A DNA stretch of 36,580 nt from Actinomycetes bacterium (GCA_021821585.1 JAKACF010000001.1:1-36580), one strand, 5' to 3'; numbered from the stretch's first letter, positions 11,541 to 31,179 are shown. Numbers and translations are program-made. The notes: generated from the letters alone by a model not told the origin.

Positions 11541-11545
11541 CGGAG

Positions 11546-12691
11546 TCAGCCCCGGCTGTGGAGGGGAAGACCGGCCCGCCGGCGGGTCCCGCCCGCTGCC
11601 GGCGCCGCTGGACGCTCCGGCATGCCCCCTCCTCCCGGTCGCGAGGACGGGGGCGCCTCTCCGGCGAGCAGCACCGGGGGACGGGTGAGGCGCTGGCGGA
11701 AGACCCAGTAGGTCCAGGCCTGGTAGGCGAGCACGAGCGGCGTGAAGATCGCCGCGACGACGGTCATCACGACGAGCGTCGTGTGCTGGGAGGCGGCGGC
11801 GCCGATCGTGATGGAGTTCGCCGCCCGGTTGCTCGCCGGCAGCACGGCCGGGAACATCTTGCCGAAGACCGCTCCGACGGCGAGGAGGATCGAGGAACCG
11901 GTGAGGCCGAAGGCGTATCCTGACCGCCCGGCGGCGGTGAGGACCAGCGCACCGGCGAGGGCGGCGAGCGACGCCAGGGCGAAGGCGAGCGGGACGGCGC
12001 CGGGCAGCTCGCCGCTCAGCGGAGGCCGCCCGTCGGCAGCGACCCAGGCCACGGTGCCCGCCAGCAGCACGACCGCCGCCGAACCGGTGAGCAGCGCGGA
12101 GCGCGAGGCCCGCGCCGCCAGCCCGCCCGTGGTCTTGAGCGAGAGGAACAGCGAGCCGTGGAAGGCGAACAGGAACAGCGCGGCCAGCCCTCCGAGGATG
12201 GCGAGCGGATGGAGAAGGCCGGGGAGACCGCCCTCGTATCGGCCGGCGGGGGTGAGGGGGACGCCGAGGACGAGGTTGGTGAAGGCCACTCCCCAGACGA
12301 CGGCTGCCACCAGGCTGCCGCCGAAGTTGGCCACGTCCCAGAGCCGCTGCCAGCGGGGGCTGTCGACCCGGGCGCGGAACTCGAAGGAGACCCCTCTCAC
12401 GATGAGGGCGAGCAGCACGAGGAACAGAGCGAGGTAGAAGCCGCTGAACAGCCGGGCGTACCAGAGGGGGAAGGCGGCGAAGGTGGCACCGCCGGCGACG
12501 ATGAGCCAGACCTCGTTCCCGTCCCACACCGGGCCGATGCTGTTCCAGCAGATCCGCCGGTCGAGGCCGTCCCGGCTCACGAAGGGGGTGACGACCGACA
12601 CGCCGAAGTCGAAGCCCTCGAGGAAGAAGTAGCCGGCCCACAACAGGCCGATGAGGGAGAACCAGGTGGTGTTGAGAGGCGCAAAGGTCAC
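11546..12691 (-). CDS. cydB: Cytochrome bd ubiquinol oxidase subunit II
   Basis: GTG 12691 is preceded by AAGGGAG. Motifs: WFSLIGLLWAGYFFLEGFDFG, PVWDGNEVWLI, and a C-terminal core ending LAYQAWTYWVFRQRL. An extra tail of about 46 aa follows. Confidence 0.9.
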   Translation of the reverse strand: MTFAPLNTTWFSLIGLLWAGYFFLEGFDFGVSVVTPFVSRDGLDRRICWNSIGPVWDGNEVWLIVAGGATFAAFPLWYARLFSGFYLALFLVLLALIVRGVSFEFRARVDSPRWQRLWDVANFGGSLVAAVVWGVAFTNLVLGVPLTPAGRYEGGLPGLLHPLAILGGLAALFLFAFHGSLFLSLKTTGGLAARASRSALLTGSAAVVLLAGTVAWVAADGRPPLSGELPGAVPLAFALASLAALAGALVLTAAGRSGYAFGLTGSSILLAVGAVFGKMFPAVLPASNRAANSITIGAAASQHTTLVVMTVVAAIFTPLVLAYQAWTYWVFRQRLTRPPVLLAGEAPPSSRPGGGGMPERPAAPAAGGTRRRAGLPLHSRG

Positions 12692-12705
12692 GTCTGCTCC
12701 CTTGC

Positions 12706-14085
12706 TCAGTAGACGAGTCCGGGAACCGAGGCGGCACCTGCCTGCTCAGCCGGCTCCTCGAGGGGACGGCGCGCGGCCCGCACCATGAGCCAGGCGTCGA
12801 CCGCCCCGAGCGCGCCGTAGACGAGCAGGAAGGCGACGAGCGTGCCGGCGACGTCCGCCGTCGGCACGGCGGAGACTCCGCGGAGCGTCTTCATGAGGCC
12901 GACCACGATCCAGGGCTGGCGGCCCGCTTCGGTGAAGATCCAGCCGGTGGCGTTGGCGAGCATCGGGAGCCCGATCCCGACGAGGGCGGCCCGGCGGAAC
13001 CACCGGCTCTCACCGAGGCGCCTGCGCCGGGCGAGCCAGACCCCCCAGGCCGAGAGCAGGATGAGGGCGATCCCGGCGCCGACCATCAGGCGGAAGGACC
13101 AGTAGCTGAGCCAGACGACCGGGACGTAGCTGCCCGGGCCGTAGCGGGCCGCCTCGGCGGCCTGGACCTGGTTGATTCCCTGCACCTGCCCGTTCCAGGA
13201 CAGGTTGGCGATGAGCGACAGCAGGTGCGGCACGCGGATCTGGAAGATCGGCTTGTCGGAGAGGTCGCCGATCGTGATGAGCGAGAAGCTGGCGCCGTGG
13301 GCCGAGTTGTAGAGCGCCTCGGCCGAGGCCATCTTCATCGGCTGCTGGGTGTCCATGAGCCTCGCCTGGGCGTCGCCCGCCACGGAGGTGAGCAGGACCG
13401 ACCCGAGGGTGAAGCCGGCCGCCAGCCGCGCCGCCTTCGTGAACAGGGCCCGCTCGCCCTCGCCGGCGTCGCGATGCGCCCGCCAGGCACTGATGCCGAG
13501 CATGAGCGCGCCCCCGGTCGTGAAGGCGGCGAGCAGGGTGTGGGCGAAGGCCCACCACAACGTGGAGTTGCCGAGCACCGCCCAGAAGTTCGTGAGGACC
13601 GCCTGCCCACCCTTCAGGCGGTAGCCGACGGGATGCTGCATCCAGGAGTTGGCGGCCAGGATGAAGAAGGCCGACAGGATGGTGCCGGCGCTCACCACCC
13701 AGATCGTCGCGAGGTGCAGCCGGGGAGACAGTCGGCCGCGGCCGAAGATCCACAGCCCGATGAAGGTGGACTCGAGGAAGAAGGCGAGCAGCCCCTCGAT
13801 GGCGAGCGGCGCCCCGAAAATGTTGCCCACGAAGACCGAGTAGGAGGACCAGTTCAGCCCGAACTGGAACTCAAGGACGATGCCCGTCACGACACCGACG
13901 GCGAGGTTGATGAGGAACAGGCGCCCGAAGAAGCGGCTCAGCCGGTCCCAGCCGGCCTCCGGCCGGCGATAGGCGAGCGTCTCGAGGGTGGCCACGAGCA
14001 CCCCGAGGCCGATGGTCACCGGCACGAAGAAGAAGTGGAAGACGGTGACGGCCGCGAACTGCCAGCGGGCGAGCATGAGCGTCAT
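12706..14085 (-). CDS. cydA: Cytochrome bd ubiquinol oxidase subunit I
   Basis: ORF 12706..14085. Sequence: MTLMLARWQFAAVTVFHFFFVPVTIGLG, a Q-loop region, and GWIFTEAGRQPW. SD GGGGGGAG lies upstream. Confidence 0.95.
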   Translation of the reverse strand: MTLMLARWQFAAVTVFHFFFVPVTIGLGVLVATLETLAYRRPEAGWDRLSRFFGRLFLINLAVGVVTGIVLEFQFGLNWSSYSVFVGNIFGAPLAIEGLLAFFLESTFIGLWIFGRGRLSPRLHLATIWVVSAGTILSAFFILAANSWMQHPVGYRLKGGQAVLTNFWAVLGNSTLWWAFAHTLLAAFTTGGALMLGISAWRAHRDAGEGERALFTKAARLAAGFTLGSVLLTSVAGDAQARLMDTQQPMKMASAEALYNSAHGASFSLITIGDLSDKPIFQIRVPHLLSLIANLSWNGQVQGINQVQAAEAARYGPGSYVPVVWLSYWSFRLMVGAGIALILLSAWGVWLARRRRLGESRWFRRAALVGIGLPMLANATGWIFTEAGRQPWIVVGLMKTLRGVSAVPTADVAGTLVAFLLVYGALGAVDAWLMVRAARRPLEEPAEQAGAASVPGLVY

Positions 14086-14361: not shown

Positions 14362-14559
14362 TCAGCGGCGGACGTCCTCGGCGGCCCGCCGCGCGCCCCG
14401 CTCGAGGTCGCCGGCTGCCTGCTCGGCCTTGCCGGCGGCGGACTCGGCCGCTCCCTCGGCCTCGAGGCTGTGGTCGTCGGTCGCCTTGCCGGCGGCCTTC
14501 TTCGTCTTCCCGGCGAGCTCGCGACCCGCTCCCTTCACCTTCTTCTCGGCTCCGGCCAT
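14362..14559 (-). CDS. CsbD family stress-response protein
   Basis: ATG 14559 is preceded by GGGAGG. Sequence: MAGAEKKVKGAGRELAGKTKKAAGKATDDHSLEAEGAAESAAGKAEQAAGDLERGARRAAEDVRR, which shows the typical CsbD repeat composition. Confidence 0.75.
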   Translation of the reverse strand: MAGAEKKVKGAGRELAGKTKKAAGKATDDHSLEAEGAAESAAGKAEQAAGDLERGARRAAEDVRR

Positions 14560-14651
14560 GGTGTCAACCTCCCGGCGGTCTGGCTGTTGCGAGAGGACGG
14601 TGATACCCGCCCCCGGTGCGGGGGAACCGGGGAGATCTCGGCGGCGCCCGG

Positions 14652-14657
14652 TAGGCT
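14652..14657 (+). promoter_or_regulatory. -10-like hexamer TAGGCT placed 8 nt before the DyP ATG (leaderless-type arrangement)
   Basis: Fits the TANNNT pattern. There is no SD between it and ATG 14666. Confidence 0.35.
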
Positions 14658-14665
14658 CCGGCGCC

Positions 14666-15559
14666 ATGGCACACGCCCAGCCCGGGATCTTCGCGCTCGG
14701 CACCCGCTCCCACCACCATCTCGAGTTCGACGTGACACGGAGGGGACCGGAGGTGCTCGCTGCGGTGGCGGAGGCCTGCGAGGCGGCCGACGCCGTCGCA
14801 GGGGTCAACCTCGTCGTCGGCTTCGGCGCCCGCCTGTGGTCCGAGATCGCCCCAGGGCAGGTGCCCGGCGACTTCGGCGACTTCGAGCCGGTCGAGGGTC
14901 CCGACGGGTTCGTCATGCCCGCCACCCAGCACGATCTGTGGGTCTGGCTGCACGGTGCTGGGCCTGACGCCGTCTTCGACGTCGCCCGGGCCAGCGCGAC
15001 GACGCTGTCGGCAGTGGCGACGGTCGCCGCCGAGCACCCTTGCTTCGCCTACCTGTCGAGCCAGGACCTGACCGGCTTCGAGGACGGGACGGAGAACCCG
15101 CCGGTCCACGAGGCCGTGAGGGTGGCGACCATCCCGGACGGAGAGCCCTGCGCCGGCGGGAGCGTCGTGCTCCTCCAGCGCTGGGTACACGACCTCGACC
15201 GCTTCGACGCCCTCCCGCTCGAGGAGCGTGAGCGGGTGTTCGGGCGCACGCTCCAGGGAAGTGTCGAGCTCGACGAGGCCCACCAGGTGCCGGACTCGCA
15301 CGTCAGCCGCGTCGTGATCGAGGACGCGAACGGTGAGGAGCTCGAGGTGTTCCGGCGCTCGAGCGCATTCGGCGGTGTCATCGAGCACGGCCTCGTCTTC
15401 GTCGCCCTCAGCAGGGACCGGGCGCGCCTTCGCACCATGCTGGACCGGATGGCGGGCCGCGGCGACGGGCTACGCGACCGGCTCACCCGGTTCTCCCGTC
15501 CCACCTCGGGCGCCTGGTACCTGGCGCCGCCCGTCGAGCTGCTCACCGGCGGGCGCTGA
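14666..15559 (+). CDS. Dye-decolorizing (DyP-type) peroxidase, cytoplasmic YfeX/B-class-like
   Basis: ATG 14666 (MAHAQPGIFALGT...) within ORF 14429..15559. Motifs: QDLTGFEDGTENP (the GXXDG region) and VFRRSSAFG. No signal peptide. Confidence 0.85.
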   Translation: MAHAQPGIFALGTRSHHHLEFDVTRRGPEVLAAVAEACEAADAVAGVNLVVGFGARLWSEIAPGQVPGDFGDFEPVEGPDGFVMPATQHDLWVWLHGAGPDAVFDVARASATTLSAVATVAAEHPCFAYLSSQDLTGFEDGTENPPVHEAVRVATIPDGEPCAGGSVVLLQRWVHDLDRFDALPLEERERVFGRTLQGSVELDEAHQVPDSHVSRVVIEDANGEELEVFRRSSAFGGVIEHGLVFVALSRDRARLRTMLDRMAGRGDGLRDRLTRFSRPTSGAWYLAPPVELLTGGR

Positions 15560-15584: not shown

Positions 15585-16103
15585 GAGCGGGCGCCCCATG
15601 AGGATCGAGTCCCACAGCTCGCCGTTGCGGCGCCGGTAGTGCTTGGCCTTGCGTCCCTCGACGACGAAGCCGGCCCGTTCGTACAGCGCGATGGCGGCGG
15701 CGTTGTCGGGCCAGACCTCGAGGGACATCTTGTGGGCCCCGGCCGAGGTGGCCCAGGCGATGGCGGCATCGAGGAGGGCCCGCCCGATGCCCCGTCCCCG
15801 CCAGCCCGCCTGGAGCAGCATCCCGATGTCGGCGACGCCGTAGGGGGCGACCGAGACGGTGAGGTGGCCGACGACGCCCGGGCCGCCGGCGGCGCAGGTG
15901 TCGGCGACGAGCACCGTCGAGGTCTCGGCCCCGAGCAGCTCCCCGAGCCGGGCGCGCCGCCGGGCGCGGTCGAAGGGCACCTCGGCACCGATGAAGCGGC
16001 CCTCGGCGGCGACGGACCAGGTCTGCTCGACGAGCAGGTCGAGCTCGTCCTCGGTGGCGGGGCGCACGAGGACGGCGGCCTCCGGCGTCTCGGCGGATCG
16101 CAT
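15579..16103 (-). CDS. GNAT family N-acetyltransferase
   Basis: ATG 16103 ([17 protein letters not shown]...). The acetyl-CoA site is [19 protein letters not shown], followed by [12 protein letters not shown]. Confidence 0.85.
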
Positions 16104-16182
16104 CGCCCGAGTCTTGCCGCCCGGCGAGAAGGGGTGCACGCCGCCGCGGCTCCGGGGCCCGCCGCCGCCGCAGGTCGGCGAG

Positions 16183-16188
16183 TAGCCT
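16183..16188 (+). promoter_or_regulatory. -10-like hexamer TAGCCT placed 8 nt before the GTG start of the Ntn hydrolase (leaderless-type arrangement)
   Basis: Fits TANNNT. There is no SD before GTG 16197. Confidence 0.3.
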
Positions 16189-16196
16189 CGGCCTTC

Positions 16197-17396
16197 GTGT
16201 GCGACACCCTGGTGACGCTCGGCGACGAGGGTGTCCTCTTCGGGAAGAACAGCGACCGGGAGCCGAACGAGGCACAGGTCGTCGAGTGGCACCCGGCCGC
16301 CTGCCATCTCGAGGGCGCCACGCTCCGCTGCACGCACATCGAGATCCCGCAGGCCCCCCGCACCCATGCCGTCGTGCTCTCCCGCCCGTGGTGGATGTGG
16401 GGCGCCGAGATGGGGGCGAACGAGCACGGCGTGGTGATCGGCAACGAGGCGGTCTGGACGCGGGAGCCGGCCGGCGACCCGGCACTGCTCGGCATGGACC
16501 TGGTGCGCCTCGGCCTCGAGCGGGGGGCGAGCGCGCAGGAGGCCGTCTCGGTCATGGTCGACCTGCTCGAGCGCCACGGCCAGGGCGGTCCCTGCAGCCA
16601 CGACCGGCCCGGGTTCAGCTACCACAACAGCTTCCTCGTGGCCGACCCGTCCGGTGCGACCGTCCTCGAGACGGCCGGCCGGCGGCACGCCACCGAGGTG
16701 GTGCGGGGGCGGGGGAGGAGCATCTCGAACGAGCTCACGATCCCGTCGTTCGCCCGGGCCCACTCCGACCGGCTGCACGGGCGGGTGGCGGCCGCAGGGC
16801 GCCGGCGGGCGCTCACCGAGCGGGCGGCCTCCGCGGCCGGCGAGCCGGCCGACCTGATGGCGGCCCTGCGCGAGCACGGTGCCGGGGGCCCGCCCGTCTT
16901 CTCGCCGCTCAACGGGACGCTCGGCGCTCCCTGTGTCCACGCCGGCGGCCTCGTCGCCTCCAGCCAGACCACCGCCTCGTGGGTGGCGGACCTGCGGGCC
17001 GAGCCGCTGCACTGGGTGACGGGCACCTCCGCCCCGTGCACCTCGGTCTTCAAGCCGGTGCGGGTGGACGAGCCGCTCGGGGACGAGCCGCCGGCGAGCG
17101 ACCGTTTCGACCCCGCCACGCGCTGGTGGCGCCACGAGCGTCTGCACCGGGCGACGCTTCGCGACCACGCTGCCCTGCTCGGCCGCTACCGGCCGGCGCG
17201 GGACCGCCTCGAGCGCTCCTTTCTCGCCGACCCGCCGACCGCCGCCGACGCCTTCGCCACGGCCGACGCCGTCGAGGCGGCGTGGCTGTCCGACGTCGCC
17301 TCGGCCGGGCTTCCCGACGTCCGGCCGGCGTGGTTGCGGCGCTACTGGGACAAGCTCGACCGGAGAGCAGGGCTCTCGGAGAGGGAGGGGACGTGA
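16197..17396 (+). CDS. Peptidase C69/secernin-like N-terminal-nucleophile (Cys) hydrolase
   Basis: GTG 16197 followed by [28 protein letters not shown]. Cys directly after the initiator plus [10 protein letters not shown] is the C69/secernin hallmark. In frame with ORF 15639..17396. Confidence 0.7.
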
Positions 17397-18751
17397 GCGG
17401 ACCGCGGGTGGTGGTGGTGGGAGCAGGACTGGCGGGGCTCGCTGCCGCCAGGGCGCTGCGGCGCGCCGGCGCCGACGTGGTCGTCCTCGAGGCCCGCGAC
17501 CGGGTCGGGGGACGGACCGAGGGCGCCCTCACCGCCGAGGGCGCCCCCGTCGAGCTCGGGGGCCAGTGGGTCGGCCCCACCCAGACGCGGATGTACGAGC
17601 TCATCGCCGAGCTCGGCCTCGAGACGTTCCCGACCTACAACTCGGGCGAGCACGTGGTGCGCCTCGGCGGCCGGACGACCCGCATGGGCTCGAAGCGCGG
17701 GGCCGTGCCCAAGCTGAGCCCCTTCGTCCTCGCCGACCTGTTCCAGGGGCTCACCCGCTTCATGCGGGCGGCCCGGCAGGTGCCGCTCGACGAGCCGTGG
17801 CAGGCGCCGCACGCCGCCCGCCTCGACGGCCAGACCTTCGAGACCTGGATCCGGCGCAACCTGCGGACCGAGATCGGGCGGACGTACTTCCAGGTGGCGA
17901 CCGAGGCGGTCTTCGCAGCGGAGCCGGGAGACTTCTCGGCGCTGCACGCGCTCTTCTATGCCCACTCGGGCACCGACTTCGAAGGTCTCCTCTCGGTGGA
18001 CCGCGGCGCCCAGCAGGACCGGATCGTCGGCGGGTCGGTCAAGGTGGCCGAGGCGATGGCCGACGAGCTCGGCGAGTCCGTTCGGCGCGGACAGGTGGTC
18101 GACCGGATCGAGCAGGACGGCGGTGCCGTGCGCCTCCGGACCCGTGAGGGGTCGGTCGTCGAGGCCGACCGGGCGATCGTCACCCTGCCGCCGACGCTGG
18201 CGGGGCGCCTCGAGTACGCGCCGGCGCTGCCGGCGTGGCGCGACCAGCTCACCCAGCGCCTCCCGGCGGGCGCGGTGATCAAGGTCTTCGCCGTCTACGA
18301 CGAGGCCTTCTGGCGCTCCGACGGTCTCACCGGGCAGGCGGCCTCCGACGAGGGCCCGGTCAAGATCACCTTCGACAACTCCCCGCCGTCCGGCTCCCCG
18401 GGCGTGATGCTGGGCTTCCTCGAGGCTGCCGAGGCCCGCAGCTGGAGCCGCCGGTCGCCGGAAGAGCGGGAAGAGGCCGTCATCGACTGCTTCGCCCGGT
18501 ACTTCGGCGAGCGCGCCCGCACGTACCGGCAGTACCTGGAACGGGACTGGACGGCCGAGGAGTTCACCCGGGGCTGCTACGGGGCCCACTTCGTCCCGGG
18601 CACGTGGACCTCCTACGGGCCGCTGCTGCGCCAGCCGGTCGGCCGCCTCCACTGGGCGGGCACGGAGTGCTCGCCGGTCTGGAACGGCTACATGGAGGGA
18701 GCCGTGCGCTCGGGCGAGCTGGCCGCCGACGAGGTGCTGGCTTCGGGCTGA
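17393..18751 (+). CDS. Flavin-containing amine oxidase (putrescine/monoamine oxidase-like)
   Basis: GTG 17393 overlaps the upstream stop (GTGA). The dinucleotide fold is [36 protein letters not shown]. The C-terminal FAD motif is [22 protein letters not shown]. Confidence 0.9.
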
Positions 18752-18842
18752 ACCTGGCCCGTGAGGCCGAACATGCCTCGCACCATTGCGCTCGAAGGTC
18801 GAGAAACACCATGATTTGGCGGTAGAAGGTCACGGCAGCGCG

Positions 18843-18873
18843 CTGACATGCGCTGCGCGCAGGGCGCTAGCTT
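18843..18873 (+). promoter_or_regulatory. Candidate sigma-A type promoter: -35 CTGACA (18843-18848), 19-nt spacer, -10 TAGCTT (18868-18873)
   Basis: It lies in a lower-GC spacer upstream of the methyltransferase gene. The -35 sits in the loop of the inverted repeat GCAGCGC (18835-18841) / GCGCTGC (18850-18856). Confidence 0.3.
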
Positions 18874-18906
18874 TGGCACCAGCCGTGCTGCACCCCGAGA
18901 CGGAGG

Positions 18907-19917
18907 ATGGCCGTGACCACCAACTCCCCGACCGGCTCTCTCACCCGCGCCGCCCGTGACGGCTCGTCCGAAGGGCTCACCTTCTCCCTCGGGGACCTCC
19001 CCGACCGCGACGAGGTGACCGGCCGGGTCCACGACCAGTACGCCGTCCATCCCTTTCCACCCCCTCAGCGAAAGCACTCCTACCGGGGACATGCCGCCTA
19101 TGTGAGGTCCTTCCTCGAGGGCATCGGCAGGGACCCGGCCCGATGGCGCTTCGGGGACATCGCGTGCGGGACCGGCCTCATGATGCTCGACTACGCCCTC
19201 GAGTTCCCCGAGGCCAGCTTCGTCGGCTACGACCTGTCGGAGACCTCGGTCGACCGGGCGAACGAGATGCTGCGGCGCGAGGGGGTCGACAACGCCGAAG
19301 CGGCGGTGGCGAACCTGCTCGAGATCGAGGAGACCGAGAGCTTCGACTACATCCTCTCGTGGGGCACCGTCCACCATCTCGCCGACCCCTTCCAGGGGAT
19401 CTCGGTGCTCTGCCGCGCCCTCAAGCCGGGTGGGGTGCTCCGCCTCGGCGTCTACGGCCACTACGGGAACTTCGAGCGCAAGCTCCAGCAGGAGATCATG
19501 GAGACGGTCGGTGGCCACCTCCCGCTCGAGGAGCGGATCTCCCTCGTGCGAACGTGGGCGGAGGTCGACCCGCGCTTCGTCGGGGCCCAGACGGCACCCC
19601 CCGTCGACCTCGACGACGACGACTGGGTGGTCGACGAGTTCCTCCACGCATGGGAGCAGCCGCTCAAGCTCGGCGAGGTCGTGGGCTGCCTCGGATCCTC
19701 GGGGCTGGCGGCGGTGGTCCTCACCGACTACTACGACGAGCCCATCTCGCTCGACCCGGCCCGCTACCTGCCACCGGGCCCTCTCTCCGAGCTGGCGGCC
19801 GGCCTCCCCTTCGAGCGGCAGTGCCACCTCGTCGACCTGCTCGCCAGGCCGTACTGGCTCTCGGTCCTCGCCGTGAAGCAGTCCGGCGGCGACCTCTCCT
19901 CGCCGGGCGAGGGCTGA
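18907..19917 (+). CDS. Class I SAM-dependent methyltransferase
   Basis: ORF 18907..19917. Motif I is FGDIACGTGLMML, followed by YILSWGTVHHL and LKPGGVLRLGVYG. The in-frame GTG at 18913 has better SD spacing (GGAGG at 18902-18906) and may be the true start. Confidence 0.85.
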   Translation: MAVTTNSPTGSLTRAARDGSSEGLTFSLGDLPDRDEVTGRVHDQYAVHPFPPPQRKHSYRGHAAYVRSFLEGIGRDPARWRFGDIACGTGLMMLDYALEFPEASFVGYDLSETSVDRANEMLRREGVDNAEAAVANLLEIEETESFDYILSWGTVHHLADPFQGISVLCRALKPGGVLRLGVYGHYGNFERKLQQEIMETVGGHLPLEERISLVRTWAEVDPRFVGAQTAPPVDLDDDDWVVDEFLHAWEQPLKLGEVVGCLGSSGLAAVVLTDYYDEPISLDPARYLPPGPLSELAAGLPFERQCHLVDLLARPYWLSVLAVKQSGGDLSSPGEG

Positions 19918-19920
19918 CCC

Positions 19921-22284
19921 GTGTGCGGGATCGCCGGCTTCGTCGGCCCGCCGGAGCACAAGCTGCTCCTCCAGATGAGCGAGCGGATCGCCCACCGGGG
20001 TCCGGACGACGACGGCTGCCTCGAGAGCGGGTCGGCCAGCATCGCCCACCGCCGGCTCGCCGTCATCGACCCGGACCACGGTCACCAGCCGATGTCGAAC
20101 CCCGAAGGGACCGTCCACATCGTCTACAACGGGGAGGTCCACAACTTCCGCGAGCTGCGGGCCGAGCTCGAGTCCGAGGGCTACGCCTTCTCGACCCGCT
20201 GCGACACCGAGGTCGTCCTGCGGGCCTACGAGGCGTGGGGGAACGCCTGCTTCCCGCGCTTCAACGGCATGTGGGCCGTCGCCATCCTCGACGAGCGGCA
20301 GGGGAGCGAGCCGCGGGTGGTGCTCTGCCGGGACCACCTCGGCGTGAAGCCGCTCTATCTCGCCGAGGCGGGCGGACGGTTGCTGTTCGCCTCGGAGATC
20401 AAGGCGTTGTTCGCCTCCCCGCAGCTGGCGGTGGCCGTCGACGAGGAGCGGCTCTCGGGCTACCTGCTCACGGGGCTGCACAACCACGACACCGGGACGT
20501 TCTTCGCCGGCGTGCGCCAGGTCCCCCCGGCGACGGCGGTCACGCTCAGTCTCGCGGGTGGCGGGCGCAGCGAGCAGGCCGAGCGGTACTGGGAGCCGCG
20601 GCTCTCCTCCGACGGGCCGAGCGACCCGGCGGAGTTCCGCAGGGCGCTCACGAGGGCAGTGGAGCGCCGCCTCATCTCGGACCTGACTGTCGGAACGTGC
20701 CTGTCCGGCGGCCTCGACTCCTCGACGATCGTCTCGCTCATGAGCGACCTGCTCGGCTCCGGCTCGGCCGACGCCTCCTCGATGGGGGACCGCCTGAAGA
20801 CCTTCTCCGCCGTCTTCCCGGGGGACCCGATCGACGAGCGGCGCTACATCGAGCCCGTGCTCGAGCGCGCCAGGGCCGAGAGCCACTACATCGAGCCCCG
20901 CTCCGACCAGCTCTTCGAGGACCTCCCGCTCGTCGTGTGGCACCAGGACGAGCCGATGGTCTCCTCCGGTCCCTATGCCCAGTACCGCGTCATGGCCTTC
21001 GCCCGGGACCATGCCCGGGTCCTCCTCGACGGCCAGGGTGGCGACGAGCTGCTGGCGGGCTACGTCCCCCACCTCCTCGTCTACATCCGCCAGCTCCTCT
21101 CGGAGGGCCGCTACGTGCCGGCGGCCAGGGAGGCGGCCTCCGCCGCCGACATCCTCGGCCCGCTCGTGCTCTCGAAGATGAGAGACCGCCGAAAGGCGGT
21201 GAGACCGTCGTCGCTGTGCACCGAGCGGGTCCGCCGCCACCTGCCGGCCGCCCGCGCGGCCGACCACCGGACGAACCGGAACCTGAAAGAGCGGCTGCTG
21301 CAGGACCTCACGACCTACAGCCTCCCCCCGATGTTGCGCTACGAGGACCGCAACGCCATGGCCTACGCCATCGAGTCGAGGCCGCCCTTCCTCGACCAGG
21401 AGCTGGTCGAGCTGGTCCTCTCCCTCCCCGCGGACGCCATCGTGCACCATGGCTGGAGCAGGGCCGTCCTCCGGGAGGCGATGAGGGGCGTGCTTCCCGA
21501 CGCCGTCCGCCGCCGGCGCAAGAAGATCGGCTTTACGACGCCCGAGATGCGCTGGTTCCGTGCCGAGCGGGCCACCGTGCGGGGCATCCTGCGCTCGCCC
21601 GCGTTCCACTCCCGCCCCTACTGGGACGGGCCGAGCGTCGTTGCGGCCTTCGAGGACTGCTACGAGGGCCGCCTCGAGGAGTCGCTCTTCTTCTGGCGGG
21701 TCCTCGACACCGAGGCGTGGCTGCGGGTGTTCCACGGGGCGGCGCCGCTGTCGGAACGCGGCGGGCGGCCGACGGGCACGCTCGCCGAGGCGGGCGACGC
21801 GCTCGTCCCAGGTCTCGTCGGCCCGGCGTGCGAGGAGGCCGCCGCGCTGCTCGAGATCGCCCCACCTCGCCCGGGCCGACACCTGTTCGCCTGCGACCCG
21901 AGCGGCAGGTCGGTCTACGCCCGGGTCCCCGTCTCCTCCTCGAGCACCCCCTCCCTCGAAGGGGCCGACTGGGCGTGGCTCGCCGGCCTGCTCGCCCCCG
22001 GCGACACGGTCGTCGCCGTCGCGCACGAAGGGGACCTCGAGGGCGCGGGCGCCGGGGCGACGGCGGCGGACCTCGCCGCCACGCTCGGCTCCCGGGCGAG
22101 CGACCTTGCCCGCGGCCCGGTCCGGGTGGCGGTGCTCGCCGGGGGCCAGGACCCCCGCGTCGTCGCCGGTGGGACGACGCCGGCTGCGCCCGATCTCGTC
22201 TGGCTCGCCGGGGACGACCCGTTCGGGCAGCCGTCGCCGGGAAGCGTGAGGGTCGGGGTCGTGCGTCGCGTCGGCGAGCTCTGA
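19921..22284 (+). CDS. Asparagine synthase (glutamine-hydrolysing)-like amidotransferase with a C-terminal extension of about 180 aa
   Basis: GTG 19921 lies 3 nt after the methyltransferase stop. MCGIAGF gives the Cys2 Ntn nucleophile of the class II GATase domain. The PP-loop is CLSGGLDSSTIV, followed by LLDGQGGDELLAGY. At 787 aa it is longer than the roughly 600-650 aa I expect for AsnB. Confidence 0.85.
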   Translation: MCGIAGFVGPPEHKLLLQMSERIAHRGPDDDGCLESGSASIAHRRLAVIDPDHGHQPMSNPEGTVHIVYNGEVHNFRELRAELESEGYAFSTRCDTEVVLRAYEAWGNACFPRFNGMWAVAILDERQGSEPRVVLCRDHLGVKPLYLAEAGGRLLFASEIKALFASPQLAVAVDEERLSGYLLTGLHNHDTGTFFAGVRQVPPATAVTLSLAGGGRSEQAERYWEPRLSSDGPSDPAEFRRALTRAVERRLISDLTVGTCLSGGLDSSTIVSLMSDLLGSGSADASSMGDRLKTFSAVFPGDPIDERRYIEPVLERARAESHYIEPRSDQLFEDLPLVVWHQDEPMVSSGPYAQYRVMAFARDHARVLLDGQGGDELLAGYVPHLLVYIRQLLSEGRYVPAAREAASAADILGPLVLSKMRDRRKAVRPSSLCTERVRRHLPAARAADHRTNRNLKERLLQDLTTYSLPPMLRYEDRNAMAYAIESRPPFLDQELVELVLSLPADAIVHHGWSRAVLREAMRGVLPDAVRRRRKKIGFTTPEMRWFRAERATVRGILRSPAFHSRPYWDGPSVVAAFEDCYEGRLEESLFFWRVLDTEAWLRVFHGAAPLSERGGRPTGTLAEAGDALVPGLVGPACEEAAALLEIAPPRPGRHLFACDPSGRSVYARVPVSSSSTPSLEGADWAWLAGLLAPGDTVVAVAHEGDLEGAGAGATAADLAATLGSRASDLARGPVRVAVLAGGQDPRVVAGGTTPAAPDLVWLAGDDPFGQPSPGSVRVGVVRRVGEL

Positions 22285-22435
22285 TAGCGAGGTCCGCGCC
22301 CGCCGGGTCGCCCTCGCCCGGCCGATGGGACGTTCGCGCCGGAGAAAGGTACCTTCGGCCGTACCGGAGGCGTCCCGCAGGCGTCATGCTCGGGCGCGGC
22401 CGGTTGGAGTGCCGGCAACACGGCGAAGGGACATC

Positions 22436-23632
22436 ATGGACACCGAGGGGTCACAGATCTCACGCCACGGCGGCGTCGCGCCACCCGCCCCGAGCGTGCG
22501 CCGCCTGCACTTCGACGTGGGAGCGCGGCCCTTCCTCGTGCTCGTCGAGCTGACGCGCGCCTGTGACCTCGCATGCCGGCACTGCCGCGCCGAGTCGGTG
22601 CGGGATCGGGACCCGGCCGAGCTGACGACGGCCGAGCTCACCGCCCTCCTCGACGATCTCGCCTCGCTCGGCGCTCCGCGACCGCGGGTCGTGTTCACCG
22701 GAGGGGACCCGTTCCACCGACCGGACCTCGAGGAGCTCGTCCGGCACGGCTCGTCGGCCGGGCTGTCGGTCGCCGTGTCGCCGGCGGGAACCCCACGGGC
22801 GACGGCGGAGCGCTTCGGCGCCCTGCGCCGGGCCGGAGCCGTCGCCGCCTCGCTGTCGATCGACGGAGCCGGCCCGTCGACCCACGACGCGTTCCGCCGG
22901 GTGGACGGGTCGTTCGACTGGACCGTGCAGGCGTGCCGCGCGGCCGTCGCTGCCGGCCTGCGGCTCCAGGTCAACACCACCGTGAGCCGCGAGACGGTGG
23001 CCGACCTGCCCGGCATCGCCCGGCTCGTGGCCGACCTCGCGGTGGTGATGTGGAGCGTGTTCTTCGTGGTCCCTGTCGGGCGGGCCGAGCAACTCCAGCC
23101 TCTCGGCGCCGACGAGACCGAGGACGTCCTCCACTTCCTCCACGAGCTGGCGCCGAGGGTGCCGCTCAAGACGACGGAGGCTCCCGCCTACCGCCGGGTC
23201 ATGCTCGAGGGCGAGGCGGGCGGCCACTCCGCCTGGAGGCCGGGGCCGCTGTTCGATGAGCTCCACGCGCGCCTGAGGGCGATCTGGCCCGAGGCGCTCG
23301 ACCCGGAGGCGCCGGGCCGCCGCGTGCACGACGGTCGGCGCCGCGCTCCGCTGTCGGTCGGGGACGGCCGCGGGGTCGTCTTCGTCTCCCACGTCGGCGA
23401 CGTCCAGCCGAGCGGCTTCCTCCCCCTCGTCGCCGGCAACGTCCGGGAGCGCCCCCTCACGAGCCTCTACCGAGACTCCCCGCTGTTGCGCAGCCTGCGG
23501 GACCCGGCCCGGCTCGGCGGCCGGTGCGGCCGGTGCGACTACGCCGATTCGTGCGGCGGCTCGCGCTCGCAGGCGTACGGACGCTCAGGAGACCCGCTCG
23601 GCGAGGACGCGAGCTGCGCCTACGTTCCTTGA
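22436..23632 (+). CDS. Radical SAM protein with a C-terminal SPASM/twitch-type auxiliary cluster domain (NirJ/AhbD-like branch)
   Basis: ATG 22436 is preceded by GAAGGGA. The in-frame stretch upstream to 22325 has low third-position GC (about 61%) and is treated as non-coding. Motifs: PFLVLVELTRACDLACRHCRAE (CX3CX2C), VVFTGGDPF, and a C-terminal CGRCDYADSCGG...ASCAY with 4 Cys. Confidence 0.85.
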   Translation: MDTEGSQISRHGGVAPPAPSVRRLHFDVGARPFLVLVELTRACDLACRHCRAESVRDRDPAELTTAELTALLDDLASLGAPRPRVVFTGGDPFHRPDLEELVRHGSSAGLSVAVSPAGTPRATAERFGALRRAGAVAASLSIDGAGPSTHDAFRRVDGSFDWTVQACRAAVAAGLRLQVNTTVSRETVADLPGIARLVADLAVVMWSVFFVVPVGRAEQLQPLGADETEDVLHFLHELAPRVPLKTTEAPAYRRVMLEGEAGGHSAWRPGPLFDELHARLRAIWPEALDPEAPGRRVHDGRRRAPLSVGDGRGVVFVSHVGDVQPSGFLPLVAGNVRERPLTSLYRDSPLLRSLRDPARLGGRCGRCDYADSCGGSRSQAYGRSGDPLGEDASCAYVP

Positions 23633-23861
23633 GCACTCCGTCGTGCGAGCGCCGCCGGGCGGTCCGCGCCGGTGTGGGGCTCGCCCCGGCGGACGTGCGA
23701 GTCTCGGTGACACCGCGCCGCCGTCGGTGCACGGTCGTGAGCGGATCGGACAGGATCGTCGCCCTGATCGAAGAGCTCGTCACGTGCGAGACTTCACGAC
23801 ACGGCGCGCTCGTCGCTGGCGCGAGCGCGAGGCTGCCGGACCGCAGCGAGGAGGAGGCGTC

Positions 23862-24353
23862 ATGCCGCGAGAGACGATGCCGGTCGATCAGATCGTCTCC
23901 ATTCTCCGCGAGACACCGGAGCGACTGGCCCTCGCGAGCGCCGACCTCTCCGATGCCCGGCTCCACGCTTCTCCAGAGCCGGGCGAATGGTCGATGACCG
24001 AGCTTCTCGCCCATCTTCGGTCGTGCGCCGACGTGTGGGGGACCGCCATCGAGACGATCTCGAGCACCGCTCATCCCGTCCTGCGGGCGGTCAGCCCGAT
24101 CACCTGGGTGCGGAGCACGGACTACGGCGAGCTCGCCTTCTCCCCATCCTTGGAGTCCTTCCGCAGCCAGCGTGACGACCTGCTCGGTCTCCTCGAGGCA
24201 CTGTCGGCAGCCGACTGGTCGCGAAGCGGCACCGTGCTCGGAGCCGGCAAGCCGCTCGAGCTGACGGTCCTCTCCTACGCAAACCGGATGGCCCGCCATG
24301 AGCGAACCCACTGGCGGCAGGCGGGGAAGACGGCGAGGGCCCTCGCCCTCTAG
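23862..24353 (+). CDS. DinB family (DinB_2-like) protein
   Basis: ATG 23862 is preceded by GAGGAGG. Motifs: WSMTELLAHLRSCADVW and ANRMARHERTHWRQ (His triad pattern). The in-frame upstream region has low third-position GC. Confidence 0.75.
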   Translation: MPRETMPVDQIVSILRETPERLALASADLSDARLHASPEPGEWSMTELLAHLRSCADVWGTAIETISSTAHPVLRAVSPITWVRSTDYGELAFSPSLESFRSQRDDLLGLLEALSAADWSRSGTVLGAGKPLELTVLSYANRMARHERTHWRQAGKTARALAL

Positions 24354-25460: not shown

Positions 25461-27197
25461 TCAGTGGGCGCTCCCGGCCGCCGCCCGGGTCACCGCCAGC
25501 TTCTCGAGCTCGGCGTTCACCATCTCCTCGTGGCGCCGTGCGTCCTCGCGTGCCCGCTTCGGCCGCCAGCGACCGGCCATGAGGAAGATGAAGGGCAGGA
25601 AGAGCGCCTCGCCGGCGACGCACACCCAGTACCAGGTCTGCCACTGGCCGGGGGAGACCTTGGCGGCATGCTTGACGCTCGCCAGTGCGGCGGCGTGGCG
25701 CTGCAAGAACGCGATCTCGCCCTTCAGCTTGGCGTCCTTCGCGGCAGCCGTGAGCTTCGGGATCCCGACCTCCTTGATCGCCGTGGCGAGCAGGGGTCCT
25801 GGGATCTTGGTCGGCGGGTACTTGGCGAGCTGGGCGAAGAGCTTCGGGTGGGCGAGCACGGTGGAGACGTTCGGATCGCTCTTGATGATCGCCTCGGCCC
25901 TCACCGCCAGCGCCCCGCTCTCGACGAGCGGCGTCACCGAGGAGACGACGAAGGGCAGGACGAAGATGGAGAGGGCGACGACGGCGCGGAGGATCCAGCC
26001 CCACACCGCCAGCCCGGTCGCCGTGAGCGCAGGGTTCCGACGCTCCACCGTCTCGGTGAAGCTGGCCATCCACGGGCCGTACGCCGTGGCGAGGAAGATG
26101 GCGAGCAGGCTGAACATCCAGGCAACGGTGTAGTAGCCGGTGTGCGGGTTGGTCGCCTGCTCGAGGTAGAGGATCGTCATGGCCACGGCGCCGAGCCCGC
26201 CGACGATCATGAACGGCTTGCGCACCCGCACCCGGTCCGAGACGATCCCGACGACGATGAGGGCGCCGGCGTCGAAGGCCCACAGCCAGTTCCCGACGGC
26301 GTTGGCCTGGGAGGCGGAGAACCCGAAGATCGTCTCGAAGTAGATCACGTTGAAGCCGACTGCGGTGTAGTAGATGATCAGGAACACCGAGATGGCGAAC
26401 GCCGAGGCGATGATGTCCATGTGCAGCATCTGCCGCCAGGGCCGGCGGAGCGTCGCCGAGATGTCGATGCCCTTGGCCCGGGCCTCGATGAGGGTCCGGT
26501 CCCGGATGCTCACCATGAGCTGGTCTCTCAACCCCGGCGAGAGCTCCCGCAGGCCGACGAGGGCGATCGCGAAGACGACGAGGCCGGCGATACCGCAGAT
26601 GATGAACTGGTCCTGCCACGCGGTGAGGTGGGACAGGGTGTGGCTCGCCACCTCGGCGACGACGAGGCTGCCCACGACCGGGCCGAGTGTCCAGAAACCC
26701 ATCGCGGATGCCCGCCCGAGCTGGGGGGAGAAGTCTCGCACGAGCGCAGGCGTGGCGACGAGGACGATGCCCTCGACGAAGCCGACCGCACAGACCAGCG
26801 TGGCGAAGGCCCACTCGCCCGGGGCGTTCGGGATCCCGAACAGCACGAGCAGGGCGGTGAGCCCGAGCCCGTAGGCCACCATGTTGGCCCGCCCCCAGCG
26901 GTCCGCCAGCCCGGCGAGGATGGAGGTGAAGGCGCCGATGGCGTTGCCCACCACCGTGATGTACACGTAGAAGCGGAACGTCATGTGGTAGTGGGCCAGG
27001 ATCTGCGGTGCGACCGCCCCGGCCACGTACAGCTGGTAGTAGAGGATGATCGTGGCGAGCACGACGATCCCGAGGTAGAAGACTCGGCGTCCCGTGTCCG
27101 GGTAGCGGTCGAGCTCCCGGTACCAGAGCGCCTTCGTGATCGGCCCGTGGCGGGAGGCGTTCTCCCCGCCTGTCACCGCCACCGTCGTCTGGGTCAT
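25461..27197 (-). CDS. MFS transporter with a C-terminal extension of about 155 aa (extra soluble segment plus a 13th predicted TM helix)
   Basis: ORF 25461..27197. SD GGAGGA lies 4 nt before the ATG. It has 12 hydrophobic helices and the loop motif GLADRWGRA. The tail contains WQTWYWVCVAGEALFLPFIFLMAG. Confidence 0.85.
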   Translation of the reverse strand: MTQTTVAVTGGENASRHGPITKALWYRELDRYPDTGRRVFYLGIVVLATIILYYQLYVAGAVAPQILAHYHMTFRFYVYITVVGNAIGAFTSILAGLADRWGRANMVAYGLGLTALLVLFGIPNAPGEWAFATLVCAVGFVEGIVLVATPALVRDFSPQLGRASAMGFWTLGPVVGSLVVAEVASHTLSHLTAWQDQFIICGIAGLVVFAIALVGLRELSPGLRDQLMVSIRDRTLIEARAKGIDISATLRRPWRQMLHMDIIASAFAISVFLIIYYTAVGFNVIYFETIFGFSASQANAVGNWLWAFDAGALIVVGIVSDRVRVRKPFMIVGGLGAVAMTILYLEQATNPHTGYYTVAWMFSLLAIFLATAYGPWMASFTETVERRNPALTATGLAVWGWILRAVVALSIFVLPFVVSSVTPLVESGALAVRAEAIIKSDPNVSTVLAHPKLFAQLAKYPPTKIPGPLLATAIKEVGIPKLTAAAKDAKLKGEIAFLQRHAAALASVKHAAKVSPGQWQTWYWVCVAGEALFLPFIFLMAGRWRPKRAREDARRHEEMVNAELEKLAVTRAAAGSAH

Positions 27198-30226: not shown

Positions 30227-30265
30227 AGCTCGAGGGACGCCGCTCTCCGACGTCGTCTCGTCTCG

Positions 30266-30613
30266 TGGAGGTGCCGAGAGTCGAACTCGGGTCCTCCGGC
30301 TTCTCAATGGGACTTCTCCGAGCGCAGCCGGCGATCGATCTCGAAGCCCGCCTCGCCACCGGCACCGGACGGACTTCCAGCTGACTGAGATGTCCCTCAG
30401 CGGCGCATCAGCGACACCGCCGAGGTAAGCCCTACGAGATGACGCCCACGACCGACCCGTAGGGCTGGGGCCGGATGGACGTTGCCGCTAGTTAGGCAGC
30501 AAGCACAAGCTGAGGCTTGGCGTTTGTATTGGTTTCCGGCTCTTTAACGTGGCTCCGGAGACCACGGCTCGCTTCTCCCACTTCGACGACCGGAGTCGAA
30601 GCCTGTCACCCCC
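30266..30613 (-). ncRNA. ssrA: tmRNA (transfer-messenger RNA, SsrA)
   Basis: The minus strand starts GGGGGTGACAGGCTTCGACTCCGG and ends GGACCCGAGTTCGACTCTCGGCACCTCCA. The acceptor stem GGGGGUG/CACCUCC has the G3:U pair, and the T-arm is GAGTTCGACTCTC. An internal tag reading frame ends ...GCC AAG CCT CAG CTT GTG CTT GCT GCC TAA (30521-30492). It lies directly downstream of smpB. The 3' CCA is not encoded (the genome reads CGA). Confidence 0.9.
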
Positions 30614-30669: not shown

Positions 30670-31179
30670 TCAGCGACCCTGGAACTCCTTGATAGTCCGC
30701 TGCGCCTCCCGGGCGGCGTCACGAGCCGCGATCGCATGGCGTTTGTCGTACAGGCGCCGGCCCCGGGCGAGCGCCAGCTCGACCTTGGCCTTGCCGTCCT
30801 TGAAGTACACCGACAAGGGCACGAGCGTGAGCGACTTCTCGGCGACCTGGCCGGCGAGCTCGTCGAGCTCCCGGCGGTGGAGGAGCAGCTTGCGAGCCCG
30901 GTCCGGCTCGAAGCGGCCGTAGCCCGCCGCGTACTCGTAGGGGGCGACGTGGGCGCCGACCAGCCAGGCCTCCCCCCGCTCCACCCTCGCGTAGGCGTCC
31001 TGGAGCGCGATGTGCCCGGCCCGGAGCGACTTGACCTCTGCGCCGGTGAGGGCGATCCCGCACTCGTAGGTCTCGAGGATCTCGTAGTCGTGGCGGGCGC
31101 GCCGGTTCTGGGCGACGCGCCGGATGCCGCGAGCGGCGTCGTCGCGGGCCCGCGAGCTGGCACTTTTCTTCTTCGCCAC
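30670..31179 (-). CDS. smpB: SsrA-binding protein SmpB
   Basis: GTG 31179. Sequence: AQNRRARHDYEILETYECGIALTGAEVKSLRAGHIALQDAYA...RKLLLHRRELDEL...LVPLSVYFKDGKAKVELALARGRRLYDKR. Confidence 0.95.
   Translation of the reverse strand: MAKKKSASSRARDDAARGIRRVAQNRRARHDYEILETYECGIALTGAEVKSLRAGHIALQDAYARVERGEAWLVGAHVAPYEYAAGYGRFEPDRARKLLLHRRELDELAGQVAEKSLTLVPLSVYFKDGKAKVELALARGRRLYDKRHAIAARDAAREAQRTIKEFQGR

Follow-up and report, generated by a model that had tools for sequence, protein, structure and literature searches.

A methyltransferase-amidotransferase gene pair and its radical SAM and DinB_2 neighbours in an actinomycete

Do four adjoining genes of an actinomycete, encoding a methyltransferase (MT), an AsnB-like amidotransferase, a radical SAM enzyme and a DinB-fold protein, make up one pathway? 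An initial annotation of the locus had proposed that they form a single modification pathway. We examined the genes within the whole stretch of DNA that was analysed (36,580 nucleotides of GCA_021821585.1, from an uncultured member of the Acidimicrobiales; hereafter the window) and compared them with related loci. On balance, we favour a reading in which three units lie side by side: an MT-AsnB cassette that would tailor one cell-envelope substrate, a stand-alone radical SAM gene, and an unlinked DinB_2 gene.

Layout and conservation of the four-gene string

GC3 frame analysis and translations place all four genes of the string on the plus strand, and searches with Pfam and NCBIfam agree with the domain that the initial annotation had given to each. 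The features discussed below are:

18752-18906, no strand: intergenic spacer between a flavin amine oxidase gene (end 18751) and the MT gene
18907-19917, plus strand: class I SAM MT, 336 aa; Pfam Methyltransf_31/12/25, with a family-specific C-terminal domain
19921-22284, plus strand: AsnB-type glutamine-dependent amidotransferase, 787 aa, GTG start
19921-20412, within the AsnB-like gene: glutaminase domain, aa 1-164
20632-21726, within the AsnB-like gene: synthetase domain, aa 238-602
21727-22281, plus strand, within the AsnB-like gene: C-terminal extension, aa 603-787, CofE/F420-ligase (PF01996) remnant with internal deletions
22436-23632, plus strand: TIGR04053 radical SAM/partial-SPASM enzyme, 398 aa
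23859-24353, plus strand: DinB_2 superfamily protein, 164 aa (PF12867, 1.8e-18)
25461-27197, minus strand: MFS transporter gene, a few kb from the string
32957-33799: murI-like racemase gene, part of a separate housekeeping block

The spacer upstream of the MT gene is lower in GC than the gene string (65.2% vs 72.7%), as had been observed before; a search of it for a sigma-70 consensus gave no match, and its small ORFs are just 17-22 aa long, with low GC3. An alternative MT start, GTG at 18913, would yield a protein of 334 aa, the length called in public records. After the MT stop codon TGA (19915-19917) come CCC and GTG-TGC, which leaves a gap of 3 nt before the AsnB-like gene, and a GAGGG Shine-Dalgarno-like run lies 5' of the GTG. 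The two genes are translationally coupled. The AsnB-like and radical SAM genes are separated by 151 nt, and the radical SAM and DinB_2 genes by 226 nt; tight coupling is thus limited to the MT and AsnB-like genes.

That four genes adjoin on one strand is, alone, no more than chance would give. A single operon pathway would combine methylation, amidation, radical SAM chemistry and a thiol- or metal-dependent step by the DinB-fold protein in the tailoring of a small molecule, cofactor or peptide. It is consistent with the placement of the genes on one strand within 5.5 kb, with a search for a terminator consensus between them that found none, and with the order kept in two near-identical relatives, L001 (99%) and L007 (87-91%), the only loci in which the complete string was found. 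However, the two wider gaps hold no precursor-like ORF, and L001 and L007 are uninformative on co-conservation because synteny spans the whole 20 kb. In these two loci, the DinB gene is the least conserved of the block (73% in L007). More distant relatives part the string. In L006 (AsnB core 89%, MT 82% identical) and L003 (74% and 63%), the MT-AsnB pair is followed by unrelated genes on the opposite strand, without the radical SAM and DinB genes, and in the L003 genome the radical SAM orthologue (71%) lies apart from the pair, on contig L089. A further 130 or so loci anchored on AsnB or the MT have neither a radical SAM nor a DinB homologue in their flanks, except for a distant radical SAM match (29%) in L055. 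The MT-AsnB pair is the sole conserved module of the string. Since the genes are not co-conserved in relatives, the four-gene pathway fails as an explanation, and we consider it very improbable. Transcription may nevertheless run on from the pair into the two genes behind it in the lineage of the window. The earlier statement that the string maps to no described pathway holds.

The radical SAM and DinB_2 genes

The radical SAM protein scores 435.9 bits against TIGR04053 (cutoff 395) and aligns with positions 2-366 of a model 366 positions long, which bears out its earlier placement in a NirJ/AhbD-like branch. We take TIGR04053 to be the family previously called 'BA_1875-type'. The CX3CX2C motif (Cys43, Cys47 and Cys50, at 22562-22585) and exactly four C-terminal Cys (C364-X2-C367-X5-C373-X20-C394, at 23525-23617) are as first described, and because there are only four C-terminal Cys we class the protein as partial SPASM. 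AhbD, the best-scoring characterised family, and NirJ share with it the radical SAM core and an N-terminal motif, but the window enzyme belongs to the separate TIGR04053 family and has four C-terminal Cys instead of the full SPASM set. Against the AhbD haem b synthase model (TIGR04545), it reaches 262.7 bits (cutoff 500) in two stretches that cover the radical SAM core only.

Orthologues with 60-75% identity are common in Actinomycetota, and their neighbours vary. No haem synthesis genes (ahbABC or hemY/hemH/hemQ) lie near the radical SAM gene in the window or in L087-L092; the sole hint of haem synthesis comes from L087, where the second gene downstream of the radical SAM gene encodes Flavodoxin_5. 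The initial annotation had listed no haem, lasso or exporter genes as neighbours. This stands for lasso and haem-synthesis genes, but the MFS transporter gene, as well as the haem-protein genes cydAB and DyP, are a few kb off. AhbD-like genes stand alone in Gram-positive bacteria with the coproporphyrin pathway (PMC13564367). The window gene encodes a stand-alone TIGR04053 enzyme, outside the conserved module; AhbD and NirJ belong to sister families. This enzyme is probably an oxygen-independent decarboxylase of carboxylate side chains (coproheme-type), with its pathway encoded elsewhere.

The DinB_2 protein matches PF12867 at profile positions 2-128 of 128 (67.7 bits; gathering score 24.8) and has a weak YfiT-like match; its gene is generic and unlinked to the MT-AsnB module. 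The resemblance to EgtD/EgtC/EgtB of ergothioneine synthesis is, as suspected from the start, a superficial list of parts (an MT, a glutamine amidotransferase and a DinB fold): the MT falls outside Methyltransf_33, the AsnB-like protein is of another type than EgtC, and no FGE-sulfatase domain accompanies the DinB fold. L089, in contrast, carries true EgtB and EgtD genes.

The AsnB-type amidotransferase and its C-terminal extension

The AsnB-like protein comprises GATase_7 and Asn_synthase domains and scores 423.7 bits against TIGR01536 (asn_synth_AEB; cutoff 267.1). In agreement with the initial annotation, its gene starts 3 nt after the MT stop and encodes an intact Cys2 nucleophile and an intact SGGLDSS (aa 262-268), both of which are invariant across the AsnB alignment (A1), together with R45, N70-G71-E72 and D95. 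By the chemistry of its family, the enzyme would hydrolyse glutamine and adenylate a substrate carboxylate, which would become a carboxamide.

More specific models are matched below their cutoffs. Housekeeping asparagine synthetase B (NF006949) gives 234.8 bits in three stretches against a cutoff of 499, and lasso peptide cyclase (NF033535) 299.2 bits against 525. The lasso resemblance is superficial; no B-protein or protease gene adjoins the AsnB-like gene, no precursor-like ORF is present, and an intact Cys2 glutaminase is atypical of lasso peptide cyclases. The best full-length specific NCBIfam match is the NAGGN amidotransferase AsnO (TIGR03104), at 320.8 bits against a cutoff of 570.1, and no Ngg-like gene (GNAT plus ATP-grasp) adjoins. 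Nearest among solved structures are TsnB9 (7YLZ, 6e-53), a natural-product enzyme that acts as trichostatin hydroxyamidotransferase, and E. coli AsnB (1CT9).

B. subtilis AsnB, C. glutamicum LtsA and M. tuberculosis AsnB belong to the same class as the window protein, with GATase_7 and Asn_synthase domains, Cys2 and a PP-loop. Such mDAP amidotransferases amidate a stem-peptide carboxylate (PMC6736417) and are the most plausible chemical analogue of the window enzyme. That it might act as a peptidoglycan mDAP amidotransferase is suggested by this class-level similarity and by the MurT/GatD context of the MT family. The window protein differs from LtsA and AsnB in that its closest relatives are AsnB-CofE fusions and in that it carries a decayed CofE domain.

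The AsnB-CofE fusions are uncharacterised proteins of Acidimicrobiia, Thermoleophilia, Chloroflexota and Bacillota whose AsnB core is 50-72% identical to that of the window protein. Most of the AsnB-like homologues are 870-925 aa long and contain PF01996. The fusions and the window protein are homologous at either edge of the C-terminal domain; in alignment A1, the window protein matches the two domain flanks of the fusion P0038 and lacks 103 of its 177 PF01996-matched residues. PF01996 finds no match in the window extension even at E<=1 (gathering score 25 bits), while P0038 scores 64.2 bits. The extension is predicted to fold nonetheless (block pLDDT about 63-92). It is a decayed CofE domain, passed down from an ancestor in which AsnB and CofE were fused, and has probably lost its ligase function. 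Neither this gutted domain nor the link of the MT family to murT-gatD had been noticed in the initial annotation.

In the metagenome-assembled genome TL1-5.bin92, the 787-aa form (L007) occurs alongside a complete fusion of 892 aa (L025), and the window AsnB-like gene is therefore a paralogue. The initial annotation had allowed that the gene might be the housekeeping cell-wall amidotransferase; an amidotransferase of cell-wall type is indeed the best-supported direction, but the gene is a diverged paralogue. Relative to the fusions, the CofE core has been lost and an MT partner gained. That partner is missing from the full fusions, whose genes are as a rule preceded by one for a HAD-PlsC acyltransferase; this neighbour, a non-cell-wall context, adjoins these relatives in 22 of 40 loci.

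Descent from fusions in which PF01996 scores above threshold might suggest that the protein still works as a CofE-type enzyme on the F420 glutamyl tail, combining ligation with amidation, and that the MT modifies the cofactor. We find this hardly credible, given the loss of most of the matched residues and of any match to the model, the lack of F420 biosynthesis genes nearby, and the usual partnership of the MT family with MurT-GatD.

The MT family and its amidotransferase partners

We define the amidotransferase-linked MT family by alignment A2; what marks a member is that it has the signature motifs and scores highly against the profile. The window MT belongs to the family: it is 47-82% identical to the members and shares with them 70 invariant columns, including the motifs HPFPPxQR, SWGTxHHL, YGxYGN, TAPPVDxxDDxWVVDEFLHxWE and RPYW. 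The family is small; a search of 1.84 billion proteins with its profile gave just 34 representatives at E<=1e-30. Nearly all of its members are encoded next to amidotransferase genes. Of the MT-anchored loci, 43 extend 300 nt or more past the MT gene; in 38 of these, murT is directly 3' of the MT gene and in its orientation (median gap -1 nt), and the stop and start codons often overlap; gatD comes after murT wherever the contig reaches far enough, and MurJ is next in three loci. Two of the other loci have a convergent plain AsnB gene, and three have neither partner. In L129 and L139, the MT gene adjoins genes for AsnB, a DHQS-like protein, GDPD and GDP-mannose dehydratase. P0361, the second-best MT match among the 1.84 billion representatives, is a 910-aa AsnB-MT fusion whose MT portion shares 45% identity with the MT of the window.

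In the window, murT-gatD is absent from the position directly downstream of the MT gene, which is occupied by the AsnB-type gene; the window MT shares the broader family feature of an adjoining gene for a glutamine-dependent carboxylate amidotransferase. To our knowledge, MurT-GatD acts on lipid II alone, and the literature searched held no methyltransferase partner for it. The two systems are alike in coupling glutamine hydrolysis to ATP-dependent carboxylate amidation, but the window locus has, in place of MurT and GatD, an AsnB-type enzyme with an Ntn glutaminase and an adenylating PP-loop. MurT-GatD amidates the D-Glu of lipid II, and AsnB/LtsA-type enzymes amidate mDAP (PMC6736417, PMC9131376).

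Because relatives of the MT are almost always encoded with a carboxylate amidotransferase, we infer joint cell-envelope tailoring, and this gene context indicates that the substrate of the MT-AsnB pair is probably a peptidoglycan stem peptide or a lipid II carboxylate. The MT would methylate the molecule that the AsnB enzyme amidates, at a free carboxylate or at an amide or amine nitrogen. Against this explanation stand the setting of the AsnB-CofE relatives, the closeness of TsnB9 and the lysine-MTase-like fold of the MT; no peptidoglycan gene adjoins the MT-AsnB pair in the window.

Some of these points would fit a target other than peptidoglycan, such as a secondary metabolite, a surface glycan or an osmolyte-type peptide amide. 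In support of this, TsnB9 is the closest solved AsnB homologue, the NAGGN amidotransferase is matched (under cutoff), natural-product MTases such as MitM, TleD and RebM appear, lower-ranked, in fold comparison with the MT, and the surroundings of the MT gene in L129 and L139 resemble a glycan cluster. However, no scaffold-forming genes (PKS, NRPS, glycosyltransferase or ATP-grasp) adjoin the pair in the window, L003 or L006, and the pairing with MurT-GatD described above speaks against it; we consider such a target unlikely.

The fold of the MT raises another alternative. Its AF2 model (pLDDT 84.6) is closest, among PDB folds, to the lysine MTases PKMT1/2 of Rickettsia and Rv2067c of M. tuberculosis, which are also the top sequence-profile matches and partly cover the C-terminal domain; HMM matches to the glutamine-N5 MTases PrmC/HemK are weak. 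Since the nearest folds are those of protein lysine methyltransferases, the substrate could be a protein, and the MT might modify or regulate its partner amidotransferase, or another protein, at a lysine or a glutamine amide; the gene pairing would then stem from regulation and not from a small-molecule substrate that the two enzymes share. The AsnB-MT fusion would fit intramolecular modification too. The similarity is, however, at fold level only (17-22% identity, TM-score about 0.6), and PKMT1, PKMT2 and Rv2067c have larger proteins as targets and different genomic contexts. Moreover, the partners, MurT-GatD and AsnB, come from two unrelated protein families. With such partners, a shared kind of substrate or product is more probable than a shared protein target. 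We therefore regard a protein-directed MT as improbable.

For joint tailoring of the cell envelope, mycobacteria provide a parallel, in that the carboxyls of their stem peptides have been reported as amidated, methylated or glycylated (PMC4995902). As no MT homologue named as mycobacterial appeared, this serves as precedent only. We tentatively propose, as one possibility, that this undescribed MT family methylates the lipid II stem peptide, giving a methyl ester at a free carboxylate or an N-methyl on the carboxamide just formed, and that the clade of Acidimicrobiales to which the window belongs has swapped MurT-GatD for an AsnB-type enzyme of AsnB-CofE descent. We know of no enzyme assigned to stem-peptide methylation, nor was one found in the literature searched. 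If the proposal is true, a gene would be identified for stem-peptide methylation, a modification reported chemically (PMC4995902).

Co-conservation of the flagged genes

The four plus-strand genes that the initial annotation read as a new pathway are a methyltransferase-AsnB-like pair adjoining two unrelated genes, for a radical SAM protein and a DinB_2 protein. GC3 frame analysis and translations gave the following gene models in this window of 73% GC:

18907-19917, + strand, methyltransferase, 336 aa (334 aa from the GTG at 18913, as in public records)
19921-22284, + strand, AsnB-like protein, 787 aa, GTG start
22436-23632, + strand, radical SAM protein, 398 aa
23859-24353, + strand, DinB_2 protein, 164 aa

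All four of the original domain calls stand. The methyltransferase is a class I enzyme, and the fourth gene encodes a DinB_2 protein. GATase_7 and Asn_synthase domains, Cys2 and SGGLDSS are all present in the AsnB-like protein, whose TIGR01536 score exceeds the cutoff, and the radical SAM protein pairs CX3CX2C with precisely four C-terminal Cys. Three nucleotides separate the methyltransferase stop from the AsnB-like GTG, which has a GAGGG run on its 5' side; the next two gaps measure 151 nt and 226 nt. The radical SAM start at 22436, rather than one at 22325 (435 aa), and a 399-aa gene at approximately 16197-17396, rather than a 585-aa ORF at 15639-17396, are backed by public gene calls and GC3; both longer versions were over-extended.

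The spacer 5' of the methyltransferase gene has 65.2% GC, compared with 72.7% for the string. Farther 5' on the same strand are genes for a DyP peroxidase, the 399-aa protein and a flavin amine oxidase (end 18751), and 3' of the string are opposite-strand genes for a cytidylate-kinase-like protein and an MFS transporter. According to the gene calls of L001, a relative's locus, the 399-aa gene (no Pfam domain) overlaps the start of the flavin amine oxidase gene by 4 nt (16197-18751, +), seemingly as a coupled pair. The flavin amine oxidase gene is missing from the flanks of two other relatives' loci, L003 and L006, which argues against its linkage to the methyltransferase. The spacers had no Rfam match to a riboswitch or other regulatory RNA, the sole match in the window being a tmRNA elsewhere; promoter and terminator consensus scans, uninformative at 73% GC, returned no matches, and the intergenic gaps hold small ORFs of 17-27 aa with low GC3 and nothing else.

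Co-conservation was assessed with the AsnB-like protein as anchor and tblastn of all window proteins against 86 loci. Only two loci have the complete string, L001 at 99% and L007 at 87-91% identity, and because the whole 20 kb is syntenic in these two loci, both are uninformative on functional linkage. After the pair, L006 (AsnB core 89%, methyltransferase 82%) has glyoxalase, YceI and MarR genes on the opposite strand and L003 (74% and 63%) has a PIN gene; the radical SAM orthologue (71%) of the L003 assembly lies on a separate contig, L089, where its neighbours are an unknown gene and, on the opposite strand, EgtB and EgtD. [quoted passage not shown] Since the string is confined to L001 and L007, and L003 and L006 have the pair alone, the proposed four-gene pathway fails on co-conservation, the measure that the initial annotation itself had named; its interpretation is partly supported, with the parts right and the pathway wrong, and the methyltransferase-AsnB-like pair is the only co-conserved part. 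We also rejected an ergothioneine-like pathway, for which the domain families mismatch, and a lasso peptide or RiPP cluster, given a cyclase model below cutoff, an intact Cys2, no B-protein or protease and gap ORFs of merely 17-27 aa.

The methyltransferase family and its amidotransferase partners

The real feature of the interval is a conserved pair of methyltransferase and AsnB-type amidotransferase, a variant within a recurrent, apparently undescribed methyltransferase-amidotransferase association. The methyltransferase family is compact, with 134 matches at E<=1e-10 in a word-indexed search and 34 representatives of its profile at E<=1e-30 among 1.84 billion proteins, and its signature motifs are strong in the family alignment (A2), with which a metagenome scan recovered 51 loci. 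Among the 43 methyltransferase-anchored loci with at least 300 nt of 3' sequence, murT lies directly 3' on the same strand in 38 (median gap -1 nt), followed by gatD wherever the contig permits; two have a convergent, plain 654-aa AsnB at a gap of 2-5 nt, and three have neither murT nor AsnB. In L094 and L096, two of the relatives' loci, the methyltransferase gene and the start of murT (domains Mur_ligase_M and MurT_C) share 4 nt, then comes gatD (GATase_3), and L096 continues with genes for MurJ, a PG_binding_1 protein and a PBP. Pairing with an AsnB whose CofE domain has decayed was seen in four loci, all of the window clade. P0361 (910 aa; a Logan assembly contig of 26475 nt from a low-GC organism), which ranks second among all library matches to the family profile, joins an AsnB at residues 1-590 (33% identity with the window AsnB core) to a methyltransferase at residues 615-909 (45% identity with the window protein) and is a natural gene fusion of the two activities. 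These four independent arrangements (MurT-GatD operon, operon with CofE-decayed AsnB, convergent plain AsnB, and AsnB fusion) link the family to glutamine-dependent carboxylate amidotransferases. This link is a robust genomic rule and apparently an undescribed one; a literature search on MurT/GatD with a methyltransferase found nothing relevant.

At two lower-GC loci, L129 (2639-5732, -) and L139 (1145-6755), genes for a plain AsnB, a DHQ-synthase-like protein and GDPD are convergent with the methyltransferase homologue; a GDP-mannose 4,6-dehydratase gene adjoins the set, whose make-up resembles a glycan or cyclitol-type cluster.

Most close homologues of the AsnB-like protein are 870-925 aa long, with a C-terminal PF01996 domain (CofE, F420-0:gamma-glutamyl ligase), and come from Acidimicrobiales, Thermoleophilia, Chloroflexota and Bacillota. 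Both flanks of that domain have homologous sequence in the window protein (AsnB alignment, A1), which lacks 103 of the 177 PF01996-matching residues of the homologue P0038; PF01996 gave no match to the window protein even at E<=1. Three homologues, P0002-P0004, share the shortened form. MAG TL1-5.bin92 encodes a 787-aa form (L007) besides a full fusion of 892 aa (L025), which makes the window gene a diverged paralogue. The C-terminal CofE remnant is predicted still to fold in the full-length structure model (pLDDT 71.5, shallow alignment). Glutaminase and synthetase catalytic residues are invariant in A1. Of the solved structures, TsnB9 (7YLZ), a hydroxyamidotransferase, and E. coli AsnB come nearest.

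The full AsnB-CofE fusions (L002, L008-L039 and others) have no accompanying methyltransferase gene, and an HAD-PlsC acyltransferase gene usually lies 5' (22/40 loci). This gene encodes an HAD plus PlsC-type fusion of approximately 490 aa on the same strand, and Acidimicrobiia loci have LysR, GNAT and RecA genes farther 5'. A literature search for the fusion found nothing relevant, and we flag these widespread proteins as an uncharacterised enzyme family.

Radical SAM and DinB_2 genes and the wider window

Scoring 435.9 against TIGR04053 (curated cutoff 395) and 262.7 against the AhbD model (curated cutoff 500), the radical SAM protein is, judged by sequence, a bona fide TIGR04053 member. Orthologues at 60-75% identity are abundant in Actinomycetota and their neighbours vary, from ACT protein and Flavodoxin_5 genes in L087 to His_Phos_1/DUF3090 and NMO genes in L091. 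At 3129-4425 (+), L087 has an unknown 209-aa gene and the Flavodoxin_5 gene 3' of a 74% identical TIGR04053 gene. The Flavodoxin_5 family contains HemG-type protoporphyrinogen oxidases, and its proximity may point to a connection with anaerobic haem synthesis. L089 (1800-4160, -), from another Acidimicrobiales-like MAG, has genuine EgtD (Methyltransf_33) and EgtB (DinB_2 plus FGE-sulfatase) genes close to its TIGR04053 gene on the other strand, a coincidental echo of the comparison with ergothioneine synthesis in the initial annotation.

TIGR04053 genes show stand-alone, housekeeping-type behaviour, which fits the role proposed for AhbD-like enzymes as oxygen-independent coproheme decarboxylases in Gram-positive bacteria. 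AhbD-type genes stand alone in Gram-positive bacteria using the coproporphyrin pathway and are candidates for this activity (PMC13564367, PMC10548856); for Bacillaceae, the oxygen-independent enzyme of the coproheme decarboxylation step is described as still unknown (PMC10965808). From these reviews and the variable neighbours, our best guess is that the gene would encode a stand-alone AhbD-like decarboxylase whose pathway is encoded elsewhere, a case that the initial annotation had also named as counting against its pathway. Literature searches for TIGR04053 or BA_1875 found nothing relevant. Within the block, conservation is lowest for the DinB_2 gene, whose product is generic.

Other features of the window are:

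11546-12691, - strand, cydB
12706-14085, - strand, cydA
14429-15559, + strand, DyP-type peroxidase gene
30263-30613, - strand, complete tmRNA gene (RF00023, 147.8 bits)
30670-31239, - strand, smpB (SmpB), directly adjoining the tmRNA gene
32957-33799, + strand, Asp/Glu racemase gene (murI-like)

With a CydDC-type ABC transporter, cydA and cydB form a block 5' of the string (approximately 7000-14085, -), and these genes, like that of the DyP-type peroxidase, are for haem-dependent proteins; the AhbD-like radical SAM gene is a few kb away. The racemase gene comes after Prok-JAB, ThiS-like and PALP genes (31050-32009, +, and onward) in a mec-cysO-cysM-type cysteine synthesis arrangement, and together they look like a conserved housekeeping block.

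Proposed chemistry and substrate of the pair

By the chemistry of its family, the AsnB domain would hydrolyse glutamine at Cys2 and channel ammonia to an adenylated substrate carboxylate, yielding a carboxamide, and the gene context suggests that the methyltransferase would then methylate the same molecule. To our knowledge, the sole role of MurT-GatD is that of lipid II D-isoglutamate amidotransferase. In the stem peptide, mDAP is amidated by enzymes of the AsnB/LtsA type (PMC6736417, PMC9131376). Since MurT-GatD acts on lipid II and AsnB/LtsA on mDAP, we infer from gene association that a peptidoglycan precursor is the likeliest substrate of the pair. Mycobacterial stem-peptide carboxyls are reported to be amidated, methylated or glycylated (PMC4995902), and stem-peptide methylation is thus chemically real; we saw no mycobacterial member of the methyltransferase family. 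No cell-wall gene adjoins the pair in the window, and an alternative is that it acts on another envelope polymer or metabolite. A protein target of the methyltransferase is a further alternative; its model (pLDDT 84.6) is nearest, at fold level only, to the bacterial protein lysine methyltransferases PKMT1/2 and Rv2067c. The link between the methyltransferase family and amidotransferases offers cell-wall biochemists a concrete candidate for methylation coupled to stem-peptide amidation in soil Actinomycetota.
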